From sequence record EU863409: a stretch of DNA of 64,000 nt; one strand, 5' to 3'. Below, piece after piece: positions 5,302 to 59,828 of this stretch (position 1 is the first letter of the stretch; each line of letters starts with the position of its first letter). The DNA comes from Escherichia phage JS10. The notes under the pieces are model-generated. The model searched no databases. It was not told the DNA's origin and saw only the letters and a program-made list of their open reading frames with translations. A program made the translations under genes and the position numbers.

Positions 5302-5529
5302 TTAATCCTTGTAATTCAGTTTTATATAAAAATCTTCGTCGGTAACGTGATAGTTATAAGTTAATGTTCCTTTTTCAGCTTTAATTTCTACCGAATCAGG
5401 GTGTTTTGGGTCTATTACAATAGGAAGCTTGGCAATATCCTTAAGATACATTTTAAGAACATAAGGAATTGCCGAATACTCTCCATCTACTTCTTCTAAA
5501 AGGCCTACCAGGTTAATCTTGAGTTCCAT
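5302..5529 (-). CDS. hypothetical protein (75 aa)
   Basis: Start moved to internal ATG (MELKINL) overlapping the last codons of gene 55 in another frame. Confidence 0.45.
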
Positions 5530-6070
5530 ATAAAAAATCCAGCTCACCAACTTTAGATTCGGCGCTCTTATCAGACCCTGGCGCTTTAACTAAAGAGGTT
5601 TCATACTGAGTCATTTTGTCGTAAATATCCTGGATAAAAGTTTCATCTGCGATACCTACCATGTCGTCGTCATTGGCGTCATAAACGTTATGGACGAAGT
5701 AGCTGTATTTCTTTGCCATTTCTTTACGTTCTTTCTTGATACGCTGAACAAAGGCATTAAAACAAGCCATAGTGATATATGCATGTGGGTTGTCGTATTT
5801 TGTTTCGTCGAAGTTATGAAGACCTTTAATAGAGGCTTCGATTCCATCAGCAATCATTTCTTGCTTCCAAGATTGGGTATATCCGGAGAAGTTGAAACGC
5901 TTAGAAAGGCCTTCAGCAATGAGCATAATAGCCAAGCCGATAACGTCGTTCTGACGAACTATTTTATTAGGGTCGGTATTTTCTCGGAGTTCCGTTTTCC
6001 ACTGGGTAATGGCTTTCAGAAGCTCCTTATTATTTACATAGTTATTTTTAGTCAGTTTAATTTCGGTCAT
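5513..6070 (-). CDS. 55: late-transcription sigma factor gp55
   Basis: 185-aa ORF with T4 gp55-like sequence throughout; GAGGT SD. Confidence 0.9.
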
Positions 6071-9094: not shown

Positions 9095-9568
9095 TCATTT
9101 AAGCGATTTCCTCAGTTGTTTTTTAAATGAATCGACCATTTGTTTCTTTGTGTCAGATTCATTATAAGTCATTCCATGTGAAAGCATTTCAGCAATCATT
9201 TCTTCCTTACCTAATCTACTGAACTCTTTGGTTTTATCAGGAACGAAATTAGGATGGATATTGTTTTCAGTATAATCAGATTTCAGATAGACCAGCAAAT
9301 TCTCTAACCATTCGAGGTAGTCAACATTTTGACCTTTAAGACCAGAACGGTTGAACTTATGCTTCATTTGTCCTTCTGCAGCATTGCACAGGTTACATAG
9401 TAAACCACGAACCTTACCAGCTTTTGGCCCGCTCAATTCATGGTCGTGGTCAAGGTGGTTACTTTGAACATCAGGGTTTAATTCACGTTTACAAATCAAA
9501 CACTTACCACATTGTGCATCATAAAGTTTTTGTTTTTCTTCTTTGTATAATTTGCCGGTCAACAACAT
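9095..9568 (-). CDS. 49: endonuclease VII (Holliday-junction resolvase, gp49)
   Basis: 157-aa ORF with zinc-binding Cys cluster and HDHE motif matching T4 endo VII. Confidence 0.88.
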   Translation of the reverse strand: MLLTGKLYKEEKQKLYDAQCGKCLICKRELNPDVQSNHLDHDHELSGPKAGKVRGLLCNLCNAAEGQMKHKFNRSGLKGQNVDYLEWLENLLVYLKSDYTENNIHPNFVPDKTKEFSRLGKEEMIAEMLSHGMTYNESDTKKQMVDSFKKQLRKSLK

Positions 9569-9603
9569 AATAAACCCTTACCATTATTAGATAAGGGTAT
9601 TTA

Positions 9604-9789
9604 TTATTTTTCAAATGTGCTATAGAACGAACGGTGCAACCGTTTAAATTGACGAATCATCTTTTTGGTAGGACGAGTATACAATCCCACACAGGTGGCC
9701 ATAAACTGGTCAGTAGGGCTTCCTTTGATAAGAAGTTTCCAGACCTTGTCACCGTTTAACTTTTCGGTATAGACTAATGCAGTTTTCAT
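9604..9789 (-). CDS. hypothetical protein
   Basis: 61-aa ORF; ATGA overlap. Confidence 0.4.
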   Translation of the reverse strand: MKTALVYTEKLNGDKVWKLLIKGSPTDQFMATCVGLYTRPTKKMIRQFKRLHRSFYSTFEK

Positions 9790-23556: not shown

Positions 23557-24015
23557 TTAAAGATAGATTACTTTCGTGCTGGTTTTACCTTCTAAACGTT
23601 TAGAGTTAACAAATGCCATACGACATTTTAATGAATACCCTTTATCAGGATGTTTACGATCTACGGTCATACCCAACCATAAGGTTTTATCGGTAATCTC
23701 GAGACGCAGTGGACGATACACTTTACCTGGGACAATTTCAGATTCTACGTCAGGAAGAGGCTCCTGGATTAAAAATTCATGGATTTCTTTAACATGATTG
23801 TGGAGCTTCTTGAACAAAGAGAAAACATATTTTTCGTCAATTTCACGTTGGATAGCACGGTCCAACAAGTGATTAGAGTACTTAATAAAGAAAGCTGGGA
23901 CACCGCTCTTAATGGCGGCTTTTTTGATGGACGCGTTAAGTTCACGAAATTCGGTTTCGAACTGACGACGTAATTTGTTGCGGCGGATGAATACTTCTGA
24001 ATTAATTTCTGACAT
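23557..24015 (-). CDS. regB: RegB site-specific endoribonuclease
   Basis: 152 aa resembling T4 RegB (FIRRNKLRR, LLDRAIQREIDE); downstream of canonical PeSL-like cassette. Confidence 0.8.
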   Translation of the reverse strand: MSEINSEVFIRRNKLRRQFETEFRELNASIKKAAIKSGVPAFFIKYSNHLLDRAIQREIDEKYVFSLFKKLHNHVKEIHEFLIQEPLPDVESEIVPGKVYRPLRLEITDKTLWLGMTVDRKHPDKGYSLKCRMAFVNSKRLEGKTSTKVIYL

Positions 24016-27396: not shown

Positions 27397-27475
27397 ACGG
27401 GTCCTTCAAATGTAAATTTAATTAGTCTGTTCAAGTAACTGTAGATATACTATCACAATTCTAGGAGATGTAAAC
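27397..27475 (-). promoter_or_regulatory. PeSL-like cassette (variant) upstream of internal-protein operon
   Basis: -35 GTTTAC (27470-27475), 17-bp spacer, -10 TAGTAT. Confidence 0.45.
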
Positions 27476-27480
27476 TGCTT

Positions 27481-27969
27481 TTATCTATAAGCAGCCCAAG
27501 TACCTGTTTTAAAGGTGGCGATAACACGCTTGGCACGATTCGGGGTTTGCTTGTACCAACGAGACTGCGCCAGGTTAACTGCCGCATCGTCCCAACGTTT
27601 CTGTTGGAGCATACGTAAAGAGTTAGTGAACCCTGCCACACCTGCTTCACCCATTTGGAAGACCATATTAATCAATGCGCAACGACGAACTTCGTCCAAC
27701 ACATCATAAACCGGTTTCAATTTAGGATTGCGCATTATAGCTCTACGAGCATTTTCCACTGAACGATTAAAGAGTTGTTCAGCTTCAGCCATAGTAATAC
27801 GACCATTACAAACTCGACCCATAAGCTTATCAAGTTCAGCGCGAGCAACATCTTTAGATGGGTTCTTGGTAACTAACTGGCCAATACCAATAGTCCAATA
27901 ACCTTCGGTGTCTTTATAAAGGTTTAAATCAAGACCTTCGTCTTGACGTAACATATCAAAAATATCCAT
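27481..27969 (-). CDS. e: endolysin (T4 lysozyme, gene e)
   Basis: 162 aa; catalytic E11/D20-containing N-terminus [21 protein letters not shown]; matches T4 lysozyme. Confidence 0.92.
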
Positions 27970-27973
27970 AATT

Positions 27974-27993
27974 ACCTCCTGATTATAGGAGGT
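27974..27993 (-). promoter_or_regulatory. Shine-Dalgarno-sequestering hairpin of gene e
   Basis: Inverted repeat ACCTCCT-GATTAT-AGGAGGT; proximal arm is the AGGAGG SD. Confidence 0.55.
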
Positions 27994-28000
27994 ATTTATA
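27993..28000 (-). promoter_or_regulatory. T4-type late promoter (TATAAATA) for gene e
   Basis: Exact TATAAATA immediately 5' of a CCTCCT-N6-AGGAGG hairpin and the e start codon. Confidence 0.6.
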
Positions 28001-28450
28001 TCAAAAGAGTGAATCTAAAACCTTAAACATCGACGGGCCCATGACATATTCCCATTGCGGACGTTTAATCAAAGCGAAAGCGTCGAATTCCGGAATCGTA
28101 CGACCATCAGGGAACGTATGGTAAGCTGTACATTTGCAATTCTTGAACTGCTCGTGTTCGACAGGCACAGTATATAAGAACAGGTGTAGATTCTTATTGC
28201 TTGAATATTTGAACTCACCTAGGTCTTTCAGGAACGCAGGGTCATATGCTGTGAATCCAATCTCTTCTTCGGTTTCACGCATTGCCGCTTGAATAGGCTC
28301 TTCACCCGGTTCGACATGACCTTTAGGGATGTCCCATTTATGACGCATGTTCTCTGGATTACGAGAGCCTGTTACACGACCCATAACCAATTCTTTATCG
28401 GCGGTCATGAACAAAATACCAGCGGATAATTCTTTCGCTTTCTTACTCAT
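28001..28450 (-). CDS. nudE: Nudix hydrolase NudE
   Basis: Nudix box [22 protein letters not shown]; start at internal ATG 2 nt after upstream stop. Confidence 0.75.
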
Positions 28451-36232: not shown

Positions 36233-36240
36233 TATTTATA
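36233..36240 (-). promoter_or_regulatory. T4-type late promoter (TATAAATA)
   Basis: Exact TATAAATA 27 nt upstream of gene 35652..36206, just downstream of a terminator. Confidence 0.5.
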
Positions 36241-36241
36241 C

Positions 36242-36270
36242 AAAAAAGGCCCAACCTTTCGGAAGGGCCT
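36242..36270 (-). terminator. intrinsic terminator after tRNA/sRNA cluster
   Basis: Same 29-bp hairpin plus U6 as at 35619..35646. Confidence 0.55.
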
Positions 36271-36439: not shown

Positions 36440-36515
36440 TGGTCGAGACAGTAGGGATCGAACCTACGACCTACGGTTTAGAAGACCGTTGCTCTTCCTT
36501 CTGAGCTATGCCTCG
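36440..36515 (-). tRNA. tRNA-Arg (anticodon UCU)
   Basis: 76-nt cloverleaf: anticodon stem ACGGT/ACCGT with loop CTTCTAA, T-arm GTAGG-TTCGATC-CCTAC, encoded CCA; unusual C1-G72 acceptor start. Confidence 0.65.
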
Positions 36516-36519
36516 TATT

Positions 36520-36594
36520 TGGCGGACATGCATGGATTCGAACCATGGACCAATTGATTAACAGTCAACTGCTCTACCACTGAGCTACACATCC
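36520..36594 (-). tRNA. tRNA-Asn (anticodon GUU)
   Basis: 75-nt cloverleaf: D-arm TAGCTCAGTGGTAGAGC, anticodon loop CTGTTAA, T-arm CATGG-TTCGAAT-CCATG, encoded CCA. Confidence 0.75.
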
Positions 36595-36598
36595 AAAT

Positions 36599-36672
36599 TG
36601 GTGGCCCTGGGTGGAATCGAACCACCATCCAGCGATTATGAGTCGCTCGCTTGACCGTCCAGCTACAGGGCC
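36599..36672 (-). tRNA. tRNA-Met/Ile2 (anticodon CAU)
   Basis: 74-nt cloverleaf: acceptor GGCCCTG/CAGGGCC, anticodon stem AGCGA/TCGCT with loop CTCATAA, T-arm GGTGG-TTCGATT-CCACC, encoded CCA. Confidence 0.75.
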
Positions 36673-41217: not shown

Positions 41218-42045
41218 TTATGCGTTCTTCCATACTTTCTGAGCTGAGTAACGCTTACCTTTAGATACAAATTGCTGAAGCGGAAGCATGACCACATTAG
41301 CCCAATCAGAAGGTTTTATCTCTACTAAAGGACCCTTGATATTTCCAGGGATATAAGCCTTAATCATCACGTCAGCGCCAGCGAATCCTTTTACCTTACT
41401 CCAATCGATTTTTAATTTAGTCGAGTTCGTAATGGTAGGCGTACTCGCGTATTGCTTCAGCAATTCTTCTAGAAATTGCTGGCGTGCTTTAGGCGGAATA
41501 TAGTGTAAGTTCAACCCGTACATCAGATTATGCTTACCAAGCCCAAGATAAATGATTAAAGGATATTTGTCCCAGTAGGGTAATGTGTCCTTGTGTTTAG
41601 CATCATAGATATAAGCATAAAGCTTGCCAGGAGATGGTTTAGATACCTGGTGTCCACGAATTCCTTTCTTTAATGTTTCTGTAAACCATTTAGCTGATTT
41701 ATTGTTTACAGCAGCACCTTCGTTAGCAATCTTATCACGAATACTCTTTCTAAAACTATTCACCAAAATTAATTGACGTTCGGCTTTGGTCAATTTATTG
41801 CCAGGTTTCTTCTGGAGTTTTTCGACCTGTACAGCAGTTTTAATTCGACTCGAGTATCGAGACATCGCAGATGTAAAGCTAGAATACTTAATGCCTTTAT
41901 CTTCAGCGAATTTCTTAGCCGAGACACCTTTGGCCTTAGCTTTGGCATATTCAACACCTAAAGCTATCCATTGTTGCTCTGAACGAGTGGGCTTAGAACC
42001 TTTTGTGGTTTCAGTGGCCTCATTGATGTAGGAAAATATACTCAT
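41218..42045 (-). CDS. 2: DNA end-protector protein (gp2) by position
   Basis: 275 aa; ATGA overlap with gene 4 stop. Confidence 0.65.
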
Positions 42046-42491
42046 CCTTTCCATCCTAATTTTTTCAGTGAGTTTTCAGTTATCAATCTAAAATTGATTC
42101 CCATTTTATCTGCTGTAGCTTTAGCAGCTTTCCATTTATCTTTATTTACACTCCATGTATAATGTTCGTTGATATATCTCTTTTTAGCGGCTGTAGTCAT
42201 TTTAGCAGGAGCCGCTGGAGGATGGGTTTCTTTAAAAGGTTTGACTTCAAAAAAGAATTGTTGGCCGTTATCAAACTTAACCCAGAAGTCCATAAAATAT
42301 CGACGTTTCTTTCCATCAGCATTACTAAAATACGGAATAACTACCTCTTCAGAGTTCCATTGGACTACGTTAGGATGATTGTCAAGCCAACGCATGAGCC
42401 ATGCTTCCCATGAGGAACGATATTGGATTTTCTTCCAGTCACCTTTATATTTTTGTAAGTTGGTAGGTTTAAATTTCCCTGAGTAAGCCAT
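42042..42491 (-). CDS. 4: head completion protein (gp4)
   Basis: 149 aa resembling T4 gp4 (MAYSGK..., KKRRYFMD); TATAAATA late promoter upstream. Confidence 0.85.
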
Positions 42492-42502
42492 AGTTGCCTC
42501 CT

Positions 42503-42510
42503 TATAAATA
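42503..42510 (+). promoter_or_regulatory. T4-type late promoter (TATAAATA) for gene 53 operon
   Basis: Exact TATAAATA 28 nt upstream of gene 53 ATG. Confidence 0.6.
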
Positions 42511-42517
42511 TTAATAT

Positions 42518-42525
42518 TATTTATA
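42518..42525 (-). promoter_or_regulatory. T4-type late promoter (TATAAATA) for genes 4-2-3
   Basis: Exact TATAAATA on minus strand 27 nt upstream of gene 4 ATG; divergent from the gene 53 promoter. Confidence 0.6.
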
Positions 42526-42537
42526 CTCGGAGGCCCT

Positions 42538-43140
42538 ATGCTCTTCTCATTTTTCGATCCTATCGATTACGAATCAAAAACAGTCAAGCCAGATTCCGGC
42601 TCATTAACAAATGCCGATGTATTGAGCGTGCCGATGACTGATATATTTAGAAATTATAAAGAATACTTTGATAGAGTGGCTAAAAATTATACACTAAAAA
42701 CTTATTATATCAATGGAGCCCCGCGTCCGGAAGAATTAGCCCATCTTCTTTATGGCAATGTCCAATTATATTGGGTTCTACTGATGTGTAATAATATATA
42801 CGACCCGTATTATGGATGGATTACCGGCCAAGAAGCCGCCTACCAAGCAGCCATCCAAAGATATTCTACTGCTGGTGGAAACCAGGTCCTTTACCATGTA
42901 AACGAAAAAGGCGAGAAATTCTGGAATCTTGTCAACACACCAGAAAATCCGTATACTTGGTATGATAAAGGCGATACAGAAAAACGTTATCCTCAATACG
43001 AAGGCCCGTTGGCTGCAGTAGATATTTACGAGGATGCTATTCGCAAAAATGAATATAAGCGTGAAATAAAAATTATAGACCCTAATGATATTGAGTCTTT
43101 TATTTCTGCCCTTATTCGTGAAATGGAGAAAGCCCTCTAA
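42538..43140 (+). CDS. 53: baseplate wedge protein gp53
   Basis: 200 aa resembling T4 gp53 (MLF.FFDPI, TYYI.G.PRPEELA); GGAGG SD; TATAAATA upstream. Confidence 0.85.
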   Translation: MLFSFFDPIDYESKTVKPDSGSLTNADVLSVPMTDIFRNYKEYFDRVAKNYTLKTYYINGAPRPEELAHLLYGNVQLYWVLLMCNNIYDPYYGWITGQEAAYQAAIQRYSTAGGNQVLYHVNEKGEKFWNLVNTPENPYTWYDKGDTEKRYPQYEGPLAAVDIYEDAIRKNEYKREIKIIDPNDIESFISALIREMEKAL

Positions 43141-52420: not shown

Positions 52421-52489
52421 GTATCATTATCCTTTAAGCGGGAGACTTTGGAGCATCTATTTATAATAGTGCAAAGGTGTTATTACTAT

Positions 52490-52497
52490 TATAAATA
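52490..52497 (+). promoter_or_regulatory. T4-type late promoter (TATAAATA) for gene 9
   Basis: Exact TATAAATA in the gp8-gp9 intergenic region. Confidence 0.55.
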
Positions 52498-52523: not shown

Positions 52524-53384
52524 ATGATTAAGCAAACTGGTAAAGAACTAATTGACGTCGGTGAAATTGGTAATGCCAGCACCGGCGACATTCTTTATGA
52601 CGGCGGTGTTAAACTGAACACTGACTTAAACAACATCTATAATACTTTCGGCGACCAACGTAAAACCGCTTTAACCGGCGAATTGACCGGCCAGAAATTA
52701 CACGCTACAGGCTATTATCAAAAATTTGGTGATATGGACCAAGCAAGCTCGGTTGATTTAGGCTCTTTGGTGGATATTGATGCTTCTAGCGGTTCTATCG
52801 TATTAACCACTGTAAAGGGTGCAGTTGGTGAAGGAATTGAGATTATCAACTCTAACGGAAGTATTTCATCTACCAACTATCTTGAAATCCGTATATTAGA
52901 TACTTTTGCAAGCCATCCTACTTCGACCCTGCGTATTGTAACACCTTATACCAGAGTTCTTTTATGGTGTGTATCGGATACAAACGGTGTTGCGGTATGG
53001 GATTATTCAATTGAAAGCATGTTTGGTGATAAACGAGTTCCATTAAATAAGACATATAATATATCTTCTGTCGCTCGTGATATCCCGGTGGTTTATTCAG
53101 GTCAATATTCATTGGTCAAACTTTTAGTTACTGCAGTGAATGCCAACGAAACCATTTACAAAGCTTCAGAATATCTTGTGTTTATCGACAACCAAGCTAA
53201 AAAGATTTATTCCACTGAATACGCAGTTATTAAACGTGGACAAACTTCAGATGATGACGAAATTTATTCTCTAGATTTTAAATTCGATACATCAAACTAT
53301 ATTATCGCGACCGCTTCTTCTGTCAATCCTATGAGGCTTGCAATTAAGGTCGTAGAAACCCAAACTATTGGAGTTCCAGTATAA
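52524..53384 (+). CDS. 9: baseplate wedge / long-tail-fibre attachment protein gp9
   Basis: 286 aa; TATAAATA late promoter upstream; T4 order. Confidence 0.8.
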   Translation: MIKQTGKELIDVGEIGNASTGDILYDGGVKLNTDLNNIYNTFGDQRKTALTGELTGQKLHATGYYQKFGDMDQASSVDLGSLVDIDASSGSIVLTTVKGAVGEGIEIINSNGSISSTNYLEIRILDTFASHPTSTLRIVTPYTRVLLWCVSDTNGVAVWDYSIESMFGDKRVPLNKTYNISSVARDIPVVYSGQYSLVKLLVTAVNANETIYKASEYLVFIDNQAKKIYSTEYAVIKRGQTSDDDEIYSLDFKFDTSNYIIATASSVNPMRLAIKVVETQTIGVPV

Positions 53385-57395: not shown

Positions 57396-59795
57396 ATGAT
57401 TAACAAATTGGAACTTAGTGAGTTACCATTTGTTGACGGCGTACCTGATGCTCCTCAAAAGCGTATCCAATGGATACGCGAGGGTGATTGTATGTCTGCG
57501 GCAAAAACAAAATACGGCAATGAAGGTAATTTGAACGCTGCTGCTTTAGGAGTTCAGAAAAACGTAGAAGCTCTTGATGCCAACGATTTAAAAACTGCTG
57601 ATAAAGTTAATGAGCTTATAGAAAACGTTAATAATATCAATGACGCTTTAGAAATGTCAACAGATATTTCTATCATTCAACAAATAGAGAAAAACCGTGT
57701 TGATATTGTAGACCTTAAAAAAGTCACCGAAGATACAACAGAAAAATTGGACACCTTAACAACCAATTTTGATTTCTTGCGTGAAGATGTTGGTTATCAT
57801 GACCCTTTACAAGACGGCCCATATTTAACTGTACGTGAAAATATTGTTCTTCTTAAAACTGAAATAGGTCATTATGAAAACCAGGATATAAACGGCAATC
57901 CACTGCCTCCTGGCGAAACTAATGAAGCCACTGGTATAAAACGCCGCATCATGGATAATACCACTGAATTGGTGGACCATCGTCTCCGCCTTGATACCCT
58001 TGAAAGAAACTATGAAGATTCTGATGTTGGACAATTGGGTATTAAATTAAATGAAATTCGCGCCGAATTAGGACCACATTCTGATACGGTAGGTAAACAA
58101 CCTGCATATACCCGAATTTCAGTATTAGAAACGGCTGCAGTTAATTTTAATACAGCTATTGACGAAATTAAGGATAATATTGATTTCTCTGGTATGCCTA
58201 TAAAGGACCGAGTAACTACTTTAGAAAGCAAAACCTTTACCTTAGAAAATTCGGTTAATGTTGATTTAAAACCTAGAGTAACTTCTATAGAAACTCAAAT
58301 CGGATCCGAGTCTGCACCGGCATCTATTAATGGTCGTTTAAGCGGACTTCGTACTGATGTAAATGATTTAAAAACCGTAGTAGGTGTTAGTTCAAGTGAT
58401 GGCCTACGTTTCCAAGTTACTGATATCAACCGCCGTTTAGGTAGTGAAGTATCTCCGGCTGCAGGAACCATTAATAAGCGTTTAAATGATGTTATTATTC
58501 AAGCAAACCAATCCACCTCGTCTATCCAGGATATTCAGGTAAAAATTGGTAACAACCAATCCGGTATTAAGGGTACTTTACTTAAACTCACCGATAAGGT
58601 TGACGGGACGAACCCTAACGGAGCTACCGTAGAAGAACGTGGTCTTATTAATGCGGTTACTTCTTTAGAAACCCAGATGCAAGGTAAATTAGGTGATGCA
58701 CCTTCTGATGGTAAACTCTATGCACGTCGAAATGCGGCATGGGCTGAAGTTGTTAATAATTCCACAGAAATAGAAACCGTTAAAGCCGATTTAGTTGTTA
58801 CCGACGGTAAAGTGACCGCGTTAACTTCCAGAGTAGATGGTAATGATACCTCAATTTCTTCTCTTGATACTCGTACCGGTGCATTAAACACTTCGGTTGG
58901 CGAGATTAAAGCTGATATAGTTTCTATAAAGGCTAAAGATGATGAACAGGATGGTCGTTTAACAGCACTTGAATCTAGTGATGTGACCATTAACGGTAAA
59001 ATTGCTGCTCTTGAAACTAAGACAGATACCACTGATGATGATGTCACAGCACTGGCTTTAGACGTTTCTTCTTTAGAGAACCAATTGACTCCTATAAAAG
59101 CCGATATTACCAAAAACAAAGGTGATATTGTTGCCTTAACTGGTCGAGTGGCTTCTACTGAAGGCGAAATTAATGCAATTAAAGTTGATACAGCCAAAAT
59201 TGCTCCTTTAACAACTAGAGTTACTACGGCAGAAGGTAAAATCACTACTTTAGAAACAGGGCTTGCCGCTGTTAAAGTCGAATCCGATAAGGTAGCAGGT
59301 ATTAATACCCGCCTTAGCACTGCAGAAGGTGACATCGGAACACTTAAAACAGGGTTGGCTGAAGTTAAGGGTGAATCCGATAAAGTAGCAGCTATAGATA
59401 CCCGTTTAGGTGTTGTTGAAGTTGAATCAGGTAAAGTAGCAGGAATCGATGCTCGTTTGGGTGATGTTGAAGGCGAAGTTAGTACTCTTGAAACGGGTTT
59501 AGCTGCCGTTAAAGTCGAATCCGATAAGGTAGCAGGTATTAATACCCGTTTAGGTACGGTCGAAGGTAAAGTTGGTACTCTTGAAACAGGTTTGGCTGCT
59601 GTTAAAGTTGAATCTGATAAAGTTGCTGACTTAGGAACCCGTTTAACCGCCGCCGAAGGTAAAATTACGGCCTTAGAAACAGAATTATCTAAACGTCCAC
59701 CGGTGGCTCCTGCCGCAGACGGACTTCCGTATGTTCTGGTTGATAACGCATGGGTATTATTGTCTGATTTTGTGACTTTAAACTCAGCGCCATAA
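57396..59795 (+). CDS. wac: fibritin (whisker antigen control, wac), expanded
   Basis: 799-aa coiled-coil protein with C-terminal foldon-like YVLVDNAWVLLSDF; internal tandem repeats; followed by terminator. Confidence 0.8.
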   Translation: MINKLELSELPFVDGVPDAPQKRIQWIREGDCMSAAKTKYGNEGNLNAAALGVQKNVEALDANDLKTADKVNELIENVNNINDALEMSTDISIIQQIEKNRVDIVDLKKVTEDTTEKLDTLTTNFDFLREDVGYHDPLQDGPYLTVRENIVLLKTEIGHYENQDINGNPLPPGETNEATGIKRRIMDNTTELVDHRLRLDTLERNYEDSDVGQLGIKLNEIRAELGPHSDTVGKQPAYTRISVLETAAVNFNTAIDEIKDNIDFSGMPIKDRVTTLESKTFTLENSVNVDLKPRVTSIETQIGSESAPASINGRLSGLRTDVNDLKTVVGVSSSDGLRFQVTDINRRLGSEVSPAAGTINKRLNDVIIQANQSTSSIQDIQVKIGNNQSGIKGTLLKLTDKVDGTNPNGATVEERGLINAVTSLETQMQGKLGDAPSDGKLYARRNAAWAEVVNNSTEIETVKADLVVTDGKVTALTSRVDGNDTSISSLDTRTGALNTSVGEIKADIVSIKAKDDEQDGRLTALESSDVTINGKIAALETKTDTTDDDVTALALDVSSLENQLTPIKADITKNKGDIVALTGRVASTEGEINAIKVDTAKIAPLTTRVTTAEGKITTLETGLAAVKVESDKVAGINTRLSTAEGDIGTLKTGLAEVKGESDKVAAIDTRLGVVEVESGKVAGIDARLGDVEGEVSTLETGLAAVKVESDKVAGINTRLGTVEGKVGTLETGLAAVKVESDKVADLGTRLTAAEGKITALETELSKRPPVAPAADGLPYVLVDNAWVLLSDFVTLNSAP
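59223..59675 (+). repeat. tandem coiled-coil repeat region inside wac
   Basis: At least three copies of an approx 30-aa unit TLETGLAAVKVESDKVAGINTRL; two copies share a long identical nucleotide block. Confidence 0.6.
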
Positions 59796-59796
59796 T

Positions 59797-59818
59797 AAAA
59801 GGGCTTCGGCCCTTTTTT
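59797..59818 (+). terminator. intrinsic terminator after wac
   Basis: AAAAGGGC-TTCG-GCCC followed by T6. Confidence 0.7.
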
Positions 59819-59820
59819 GC

Positions 59821-59828
59821 TATAAATA
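59821..59828 (+). promoter_or_regulatory. T4-type late promoter (TATAAATA) for gene 13
   Basis: Exact TATAAATA directly after the wac terminator. Confidence 0.6.

Follow-up and report, generated by a model that had tools for sequence, protein, structure and literature searches.

The question raised by this locus is what an inverted repeat and a late promoter do together, directly in front of a phage lysozyme gene: control the translation of that gene, end transcription, offer a target to a protein or nuclease, or nothing of regulatory consequence. In the window, by which is meant the whole analysed stretch of 64,000 nucleotides of Escherichia phage JS10 (EU863409), such an element precedes gene e, and it is very probably the translational-control leader of gene e of a T4-type phage. 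Translational control of T4 gene e by mRNA structure was reportedly shown by McPheeters and colleagues in 1986. In T4, early transcripts that extend into e form an inhibitory structure, which lowers lysozyme synthesis about 100-fold in comparison with RNAs free of it, and late promoters give rise to RNAs that do not contain the 5' part of the structure; structure probing of the T4 e RNA has been reported as well (PMC3014915). Both the mechanism and its conservation in T4-type phages are already known and were reviewed in 2010 (PMC3014915). As presented in Figure 5A of that review, similar leaders are predicted in close relatives of T4, in which the 5' strand is encoded by a region that holds a T4-type late promoter (PMC3014915). 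The text of the review makes no mention of phage JS98, and a literature search on JS98 late promoters or recent mapping of T4 transcription starts found nothing relevant. The window leader is the orthologue of a translational control by mRNA structure that was among the first to be described, and its discovery value is little.

The gene e locus

The open reading frame behind the element is an orthologue of the T4 lysozyme gene. It matches PF00959 (Phage_lysozyme) in Pfam, and its product aligns with T4 lysozyme in the PDB (1l24, E 1e-80) over residues 1-162, with E11, D20 and T26 aligned. The window is of Dhakavirus type, and over 1.2 kb around the site it shares 97.3% identity with phage JS98, in which the copy of the gene is annotated 'e' and the annotated gene order is nudE, e, ipIII. 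From the nudE stop codon to the start codon of e, the minus strand (28003..27967) reads TGA TATAAATA CCTCCT ATAATC AGGAGG TAATT ATG, with a gap of 0 nt between the stop codon and the late promoter (Table 1). An Rfam scan of the window returned no family over the e leader, its only matches being three tRNAs.

The first-pass annotation, made from the letters of the sequence, had described a late promoter that abuts an inverted repeat, the second arm of which is the SD of an endolysin gene. The leader sequence that it gave (28000..27967 on the minus strand) and its stated coordinates (27970-28000) are exact to the base, and the start codon does belong to an endolysin, the 162-aa T4 lysozyme orthologue. 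Sequence and fold agree that the second arm of the repeat is the SD, and the late promoter not only abuts the repeat but also overlaps its 5' arm.

Table 1. Coordinates of the gene e leader and of related features in the window
Feature	Position	Strand	Basis or remark
Late promoter TATAAATA	28000-27993	minus	exact match; gp55-type, positions -13 to -6
CCTCCT	27992-27987	minus	inside the 5' arm of the core stem
5' arm of core stem (anti-SD), UACCUCCU	27987..27994	minus	fold and per-lineage folds
Hairpin loop ATAATC (RNA AUAAUC)	27986-27981	minus	fold
3' arm of core stem, AGGAGGUA	27973..27980	minus	fold; holds SD
SD AGGAGG	27980-27975	minus	sequence and fold
TAATT spacer	27974-27970	minus	sequence
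Start codon ATG of gene e	27969-27967	minus	sequence
UUAUG, outer 3' arm	27967..27971	minus	pairs with UAUAA 28000-27996; includes start codon
Predicted late transcription start, T27987 or A27986	27986..27987	minus	-13..-6 rule
Gene e, soluble lysozyme (endolysin), 162 aa	27481..27969	minus	PF00959, PDB match
nudE (NUDIX hydrolase)	28001..28450	minus	upstream gene; stop TGA 28003-28001
Gene 55, late sigma factor gp55	5513..6070	minus	phrog_234, E 2.7e-68; JS98 gene order agrees
RegB endoribonuclease	23557-24015	minus	annotation within window
Three tRNA genes	36443-36672	minus	Rfam

Fold of the leader

The 41 nt from 28000 to 27960 fold as (((((.((((((((......)))))))).))))) at -14.3 kcal/mol, with a z of -3.30, and not one of 200 dinucleotide shuffles was as stable. 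The core stem consists of 8 bp, all Watson-Crick, between UACCUCCU and AGGAGGUA, and a 1x1 A-A mismatch (A27995/A27972) separates it from an outer extension of 5 bp, in which UAUAA of the promoter is paired with UUAUG of the start codon. No base of the SD is left unpaired in this fold, and because of the pairing of UAUAA with UUAUG the AUG is also buried, in the outer stem. The earlier claim that the SD is paired on a read-through RNA agrees with the computed fold, and the stem is longer than had been claimed, covering the AUG too. When the sequence context is extended to 101 nt, the hairpin persists in the MFE structure as well as in the centroid, the z of the whole segment being only -0.58. 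Moreover, in a scan of both strands of the whole window for SD-containing stems that adjoin start codons, gene e was the only case in which an 8-bp Watson-Crick SD stem is combined with an adjacent late-promoter motif.

The first five bases of the promoter double as the outer 5' arm, and the base of the extended stem is in contact with the stop codon of nudE (28001-28003, minus). A ribosome terminating on nudE would cover the 5' arm, which might permit some early coupling to e.

Late promoter and predicted transcription start

The T4 late promoter occupies positions -13 to -6, and T or A is tolerated at -13 in related phages (PMC1524935). This spacing predicts a late +1 at T27987, where the 5' arm ends, or at A27986 if the spacing is longer by one base. 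Of the 13 bases that make up the 5' arm, the predicted late RNA keeps 1, and because its +1 is the last base of that arm, it would be unable to form the stem. The computed cost of opening the region from SD to AUG is 11.1 kcal/mol on the read-through RNA (165 nt, 120 nt of them upstream sequence) versus 4.2 kcal/mol on the predicted late RNA, a cost that is still moderate.

That the motif is a late promoter, as first proposed, is borne out by its gp55-type sequence and by the presence of a gp55 gene in the window (5513-6070). Its frequency is a different matter. TATAAATA is not enriched in the window, where 8 copies are found against 7.4 expected from shuffles; because the count is at the shuffle level, the motif alone proves nothing, and enrichment was rejected as evidence. 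The raw count is uninformative and the position is informative: six of the eight copies sit 21-27 nt 5' of an SD and ATG that open an ORF of at least 149 aa, and the products of the ORFs behind these six copies are structural or late proteins.

Proposed mechanism

Before DNA replication, transcripts from early or middle promoters would run via nudE into e. On such a read-through RNA, UAUAA-A-UACCUCCU would pair with AGGAGGUA-A-UUAUG, and with the SD and the AUG thus buried, 30S subunits would be excluded and no lysozyme would be made. After the onset of replication, RNA polymerase bearing gp55, together with gp33 and gp45, would recognise TATAAATA and start about 13 nt downstream of the first base of the motif, at T27987 or A27986. 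The resulting late RNAs would begin at the loop without the 5' arm, and the open ribosome-binding site would allow lysozyme to be made.

The start point, the early read-through and the translational effect in this scheme are carried over from T4 experiments and would hold here by analogy; the data on transcript ends and translation are those of T4, and the function at this locus therefore rests on orthology with T4. With function assigned by that analogy, the interpretation offered in the first-pass annotation, in which late transcripts start inside the hairpin and are translatable and early read-through transcripts have their SD paired, is supported. It is very unlikely that the single promoter, the outer stem and the abutting nudE stop give the leader a role beyond that of the T4 switch. 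If they did, the stem would be melted for a short time by ribosomes that terminate on nudE, lysozyme would be made early at a low level through this coupling, and the plus-strand reading of the leader might also stop antisense transcription.

Read-through from upstream and the possibility of a terminator

Control at the level of translation presupposes that early transcripts reach e. Read-through from an early unit is plausible from the arrangement of the locus, because nudE adjoins the promoter, the minus strand contains no terminator-like site and promoter-like sites lie upstream. In a consensus scan, no terminator-like site was found on the minus strand between 26500 and 33500, and an early-promoter-like GTTTAC-17-TATAAT was located at 31414-31386 (minus), 3.4 kb upstream of e. 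Another sequence resembling a T4-type early promoter, TTTACA-16-TAGTAT with TG (27447-27474, minus), lies after the e stop and before an ipIII-like ORF.

The inverted repeat could also be viewed as a transcription terminator or attenuator, acting either on the plus strand against antisense transcription or on the minus strand, where it would close the nudE unit; this is highly improbable. The plus-strand reading (27973-27994) was indeed called terminator-like, with a 9-bp stem that contains 4 GC pairs and is followed by TTTATATC, but this T-run is merely the complement of the conserved TATAAATA, and terminator-like sites in the region number five, against a shuffle expectation of 5.0. There is no plus-strand unit to end at this point, the neighbouring genes all being on the minus strand. 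A 'terminator' is annotated at the homologous spot in GenBank record ATK48, which favours this possibility, and a 'promoter' in SA21RB. For the minus strand the idea was rejected, as there is no called site and the stem is followed by UAAUUAUGG, which is not a U-run; in T4, moreover, early transcription reportedly continues into e (PMC3014915).

Conservation of the leader

A translational-control leader of gene e can be followed among relatives, for which 80 loci with relatives of the lysozyme were taken from IMG/VR, in addition to the T4 locus. The 21 T4-type loci, T4 and the window yielded 13 distinct upstream regions, and 11 leaders were analysed in detail. In all 11,.ATAAATA lies directly 5' of the anti-SD arm or overlaps it, the core of the motif being invariant, and when each lineage is folded separately the SD is buried by a hairpin in every one of the 11 distinct leaders. 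The hairpin energies range from -9 to -16.6 kcal/mol and the z values from -1.6 to -5.9; nine of the 10 leaders re-folded have a z at or below -3.2, that of the window's own leader being -3.3. Across the leaders, the predicted late RNAs keep 0-4 bases of a 5' arm that is 7-13 bases long, and the computed drop in the SD-to-AUG opening energy amounts to 7-13 kcal/mol in T4 and 10 other lineages.

The element is also constant in its location. A 49-nt query that spans it matches 830 phage records at the 5' end of their lysozyme gene, and one matching record annotates a T4 late promoter there. The nudE-e synteny is kept in L001-L019 and T4, and the leader module stays with e at two loci despite a changed upstream neighbour (L020, L021). 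Distant homologues of the lysozyme (54% identity, on large contigs) have no such structure, in agreement with the phages listed in PMC3014915 as having e without the structure.

In five contigs of about 18-35 kb that are not T4-like (L031, L033, L034, L035, L036), endolysins resembling T4 lysozyme at 40-50% identity were observed. As read in the 70 nt upstream of the match, their SD (AAGAGG or GAGG) is buried by pairing at long range with a CCTC(T/A)T segment further upstream, and in some of them ATAAATA falls within the 5' arm.

Evidence for selection on pairing

Because each arm is separately constrained, one as the SD and the other by its proximity to the promoter, conservation alone cannot prove selection on the pairing. 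Chance or inheritance might account for the palindrome, without any regulatory role, if a strong SD and its complement beside the late promoter were simply shared by descent. The pairs themselves bear on this. In SD-anchored folds of the individual sequences, no core pair is broken in any lineage, and compensatory changes are seen from U-A to C-G in the RB69-like L006, from C-G to A-U in L016, and as C-G versus A-U in the stem extension, along with three G-U substitutions. A covariance model (R1) was built from a MAFFT alignment, and in the 12 leaders realigned to it (A3), 81% of cells are paired and two pairs have double changes. In a test of fixed columns in these 12 realigned leaders, covariation was not significant, as 129 of 500 shuffles scored as high, a result that would suit descent alone; it arises because the alignment keeps the sequence register while the stems shift register, which is CCTCCT/AGGAGG in JS98, T4 and RB69-like phages and CTCCTATC/GATAGGAG in others. 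Taken as a whole, the comparative evidence for selection on pairing is suggestive.

That the hairpin is a mere palindrome of descent is nevertheless exceedingly unlikely. Many of the leaders are closely related and TATAAATA occurs at chance frequency in this AT-rich window, both of which would be expected on that account, but the SD hairpin has been kept through register shifts and compensatory changes among phages whose lysozymes are 64-77% and whose nudE products are 57-62% identical, and in Cronobacter phage S13, where the surrounding sequence differs, an SD hairpin of 14 bp is retained. None of the 200 shuffles folded as well, and T4 experiments have demonstrated function (PMC3014915).

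Equally remote is the idea that the stem-loop is mainly a target for a protein or nuclease, either a repressor operator or a means of hiding the GGAG of the SD from RegB: RegB is encoded in the window (Table 1) and cuts GGAG in the SDs of early mRNAs (PMC3014915), and the e SD contains GGAG, but the T4 data as reviewed are explained without a protein (PMC3014915), and as hiding GGAG would protect early e mRNA, not silence it, shielding from RegB is at most an added layer.

Comparison with T4 and other known systems

The T4 e leader (TATAAATACCTTCTATAAATACTTAGGAGGTATTATG) has the same design as the translational-control leader of the window, and the likeness to T4 lysozyme control that had been noticed at the outset holds, since the gene is orthologous and the T4 locus is built in the same way. 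The e product has about 77% protein identity to those of T4-type loci, and nudE is the upstream gene in both. In both, TATAAATA lies directly 5' of the anti-SD arm, the SD AGGAGG is the 3' arm, with pairing that reaches the AUG region, and the predicted late start removes the 5' arm. T4 alone has a second TATAAATA, in a loop of 8 nt, and a G-U pair in the stem (CCTTCT), whereas the window leader has one late promoter, a 6-nt loop and a core that is entirely Watson-Crick. The window leader also has an extra A (GGTAATT versus GGTATT), which creates the 1x1 A-A mismatch and displaces the outer pairing to that of UAUAA with UUAUG. These differences are minor variations, and among the 11 leaders sampled a single promoter is the commoner arrangement.

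The same logic, a late promoter within a hairpin that sequesters the ribosome-binding site, is found in the leaders of T4 gene 49, soc, I-TevI and segB and of Aeh1 mobE (PMC3014915; PMC2988022). These leaders belong to other genes and have other arm sequences, and they share the design with the e leader without being homologous to it. The I-TevI, segB and mobE genes are late genes carried on long early or middle polycistronic transcripts (PMC2988022).

In Cronobacter phage S13 (L020:1440-1500), the SD is likewise buried directly before a T4-lysozyme homologue, of 65% identity. Its hairpin is 14 bp long (-18.4 kcal/mol, z -6.0), there is no nudE upstream, and the only promoter-like motif is CTAAATA, which lies inside the 5' arm and loop, not 5' of the arm. 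CTAAATA is the late consensus of the Aeh1 type (PMC1524935).

Other late genes in the window

The first-pass annotation had taken the e leader as an internal positive control for its cassette-hairpin interpretation. For reading other cases of a promoter within a hairpin in the window, the leader is a sound control of this kind, and gene 49 passes the same test. Like e, gene 49 is a late gene embedded in an early region. The gene 49 design is known for T4, and in the window gene 49 (endonuclease VII, phrog_423; ORF 9095-9568, minus) has the same design as e, with its leader at 9565-9609. There, AATAAATA at 9605-9598 is followed by a stem of CCCUUAUC and GGUAAGGG (9568-9607), in which the SD AAGGG is buried and which reaches as far as the AUG (-15.5 kcal/mol, z -3.3). 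When the covariance model of the e leader is applied, gene 49 is the next-best match, at 22.7 bits and E 0.054. The pattern in the window agrees with that of a late gene in an early region (PMC2988022).

Other copies of the promoter are arranged differently. At 36233-36270 (minus) and 59790-59828 (plus), TATAAATA comes directly after a GC-rich hairpin and T-run of terminator-like appearance. The late genes behind these hairpins (36240, 59821) have no SD stem and are insulated from upstream transcription.

A strong palindrome at 42497-42531 (-20.8 kcal/mol, z -5.6) lies between divergent late genes for head closure (gene 4-like, 42045-42491, minus) and the baseplate wedge (gene 53-like, 42538-43137, plus), and reads CCTCCT-TATAAATA...TATTTATA-CTC-GGAGG. 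It is probably trivial, because promoter and SD modules placed back to back are mutual reverse complements, and the start points of late RNAs would fall within it. Such palindromes are a trivial product of divergent late genes and are not to be read as switches. Another divergent pair of exact TATAAATA copies with inverted flanks is found at 52458-52465 (minus) and 52490-52497 (plus), the plus-strand copy preceding a gene for the baseplate wedge/tail-fibre connector (52524-53381).
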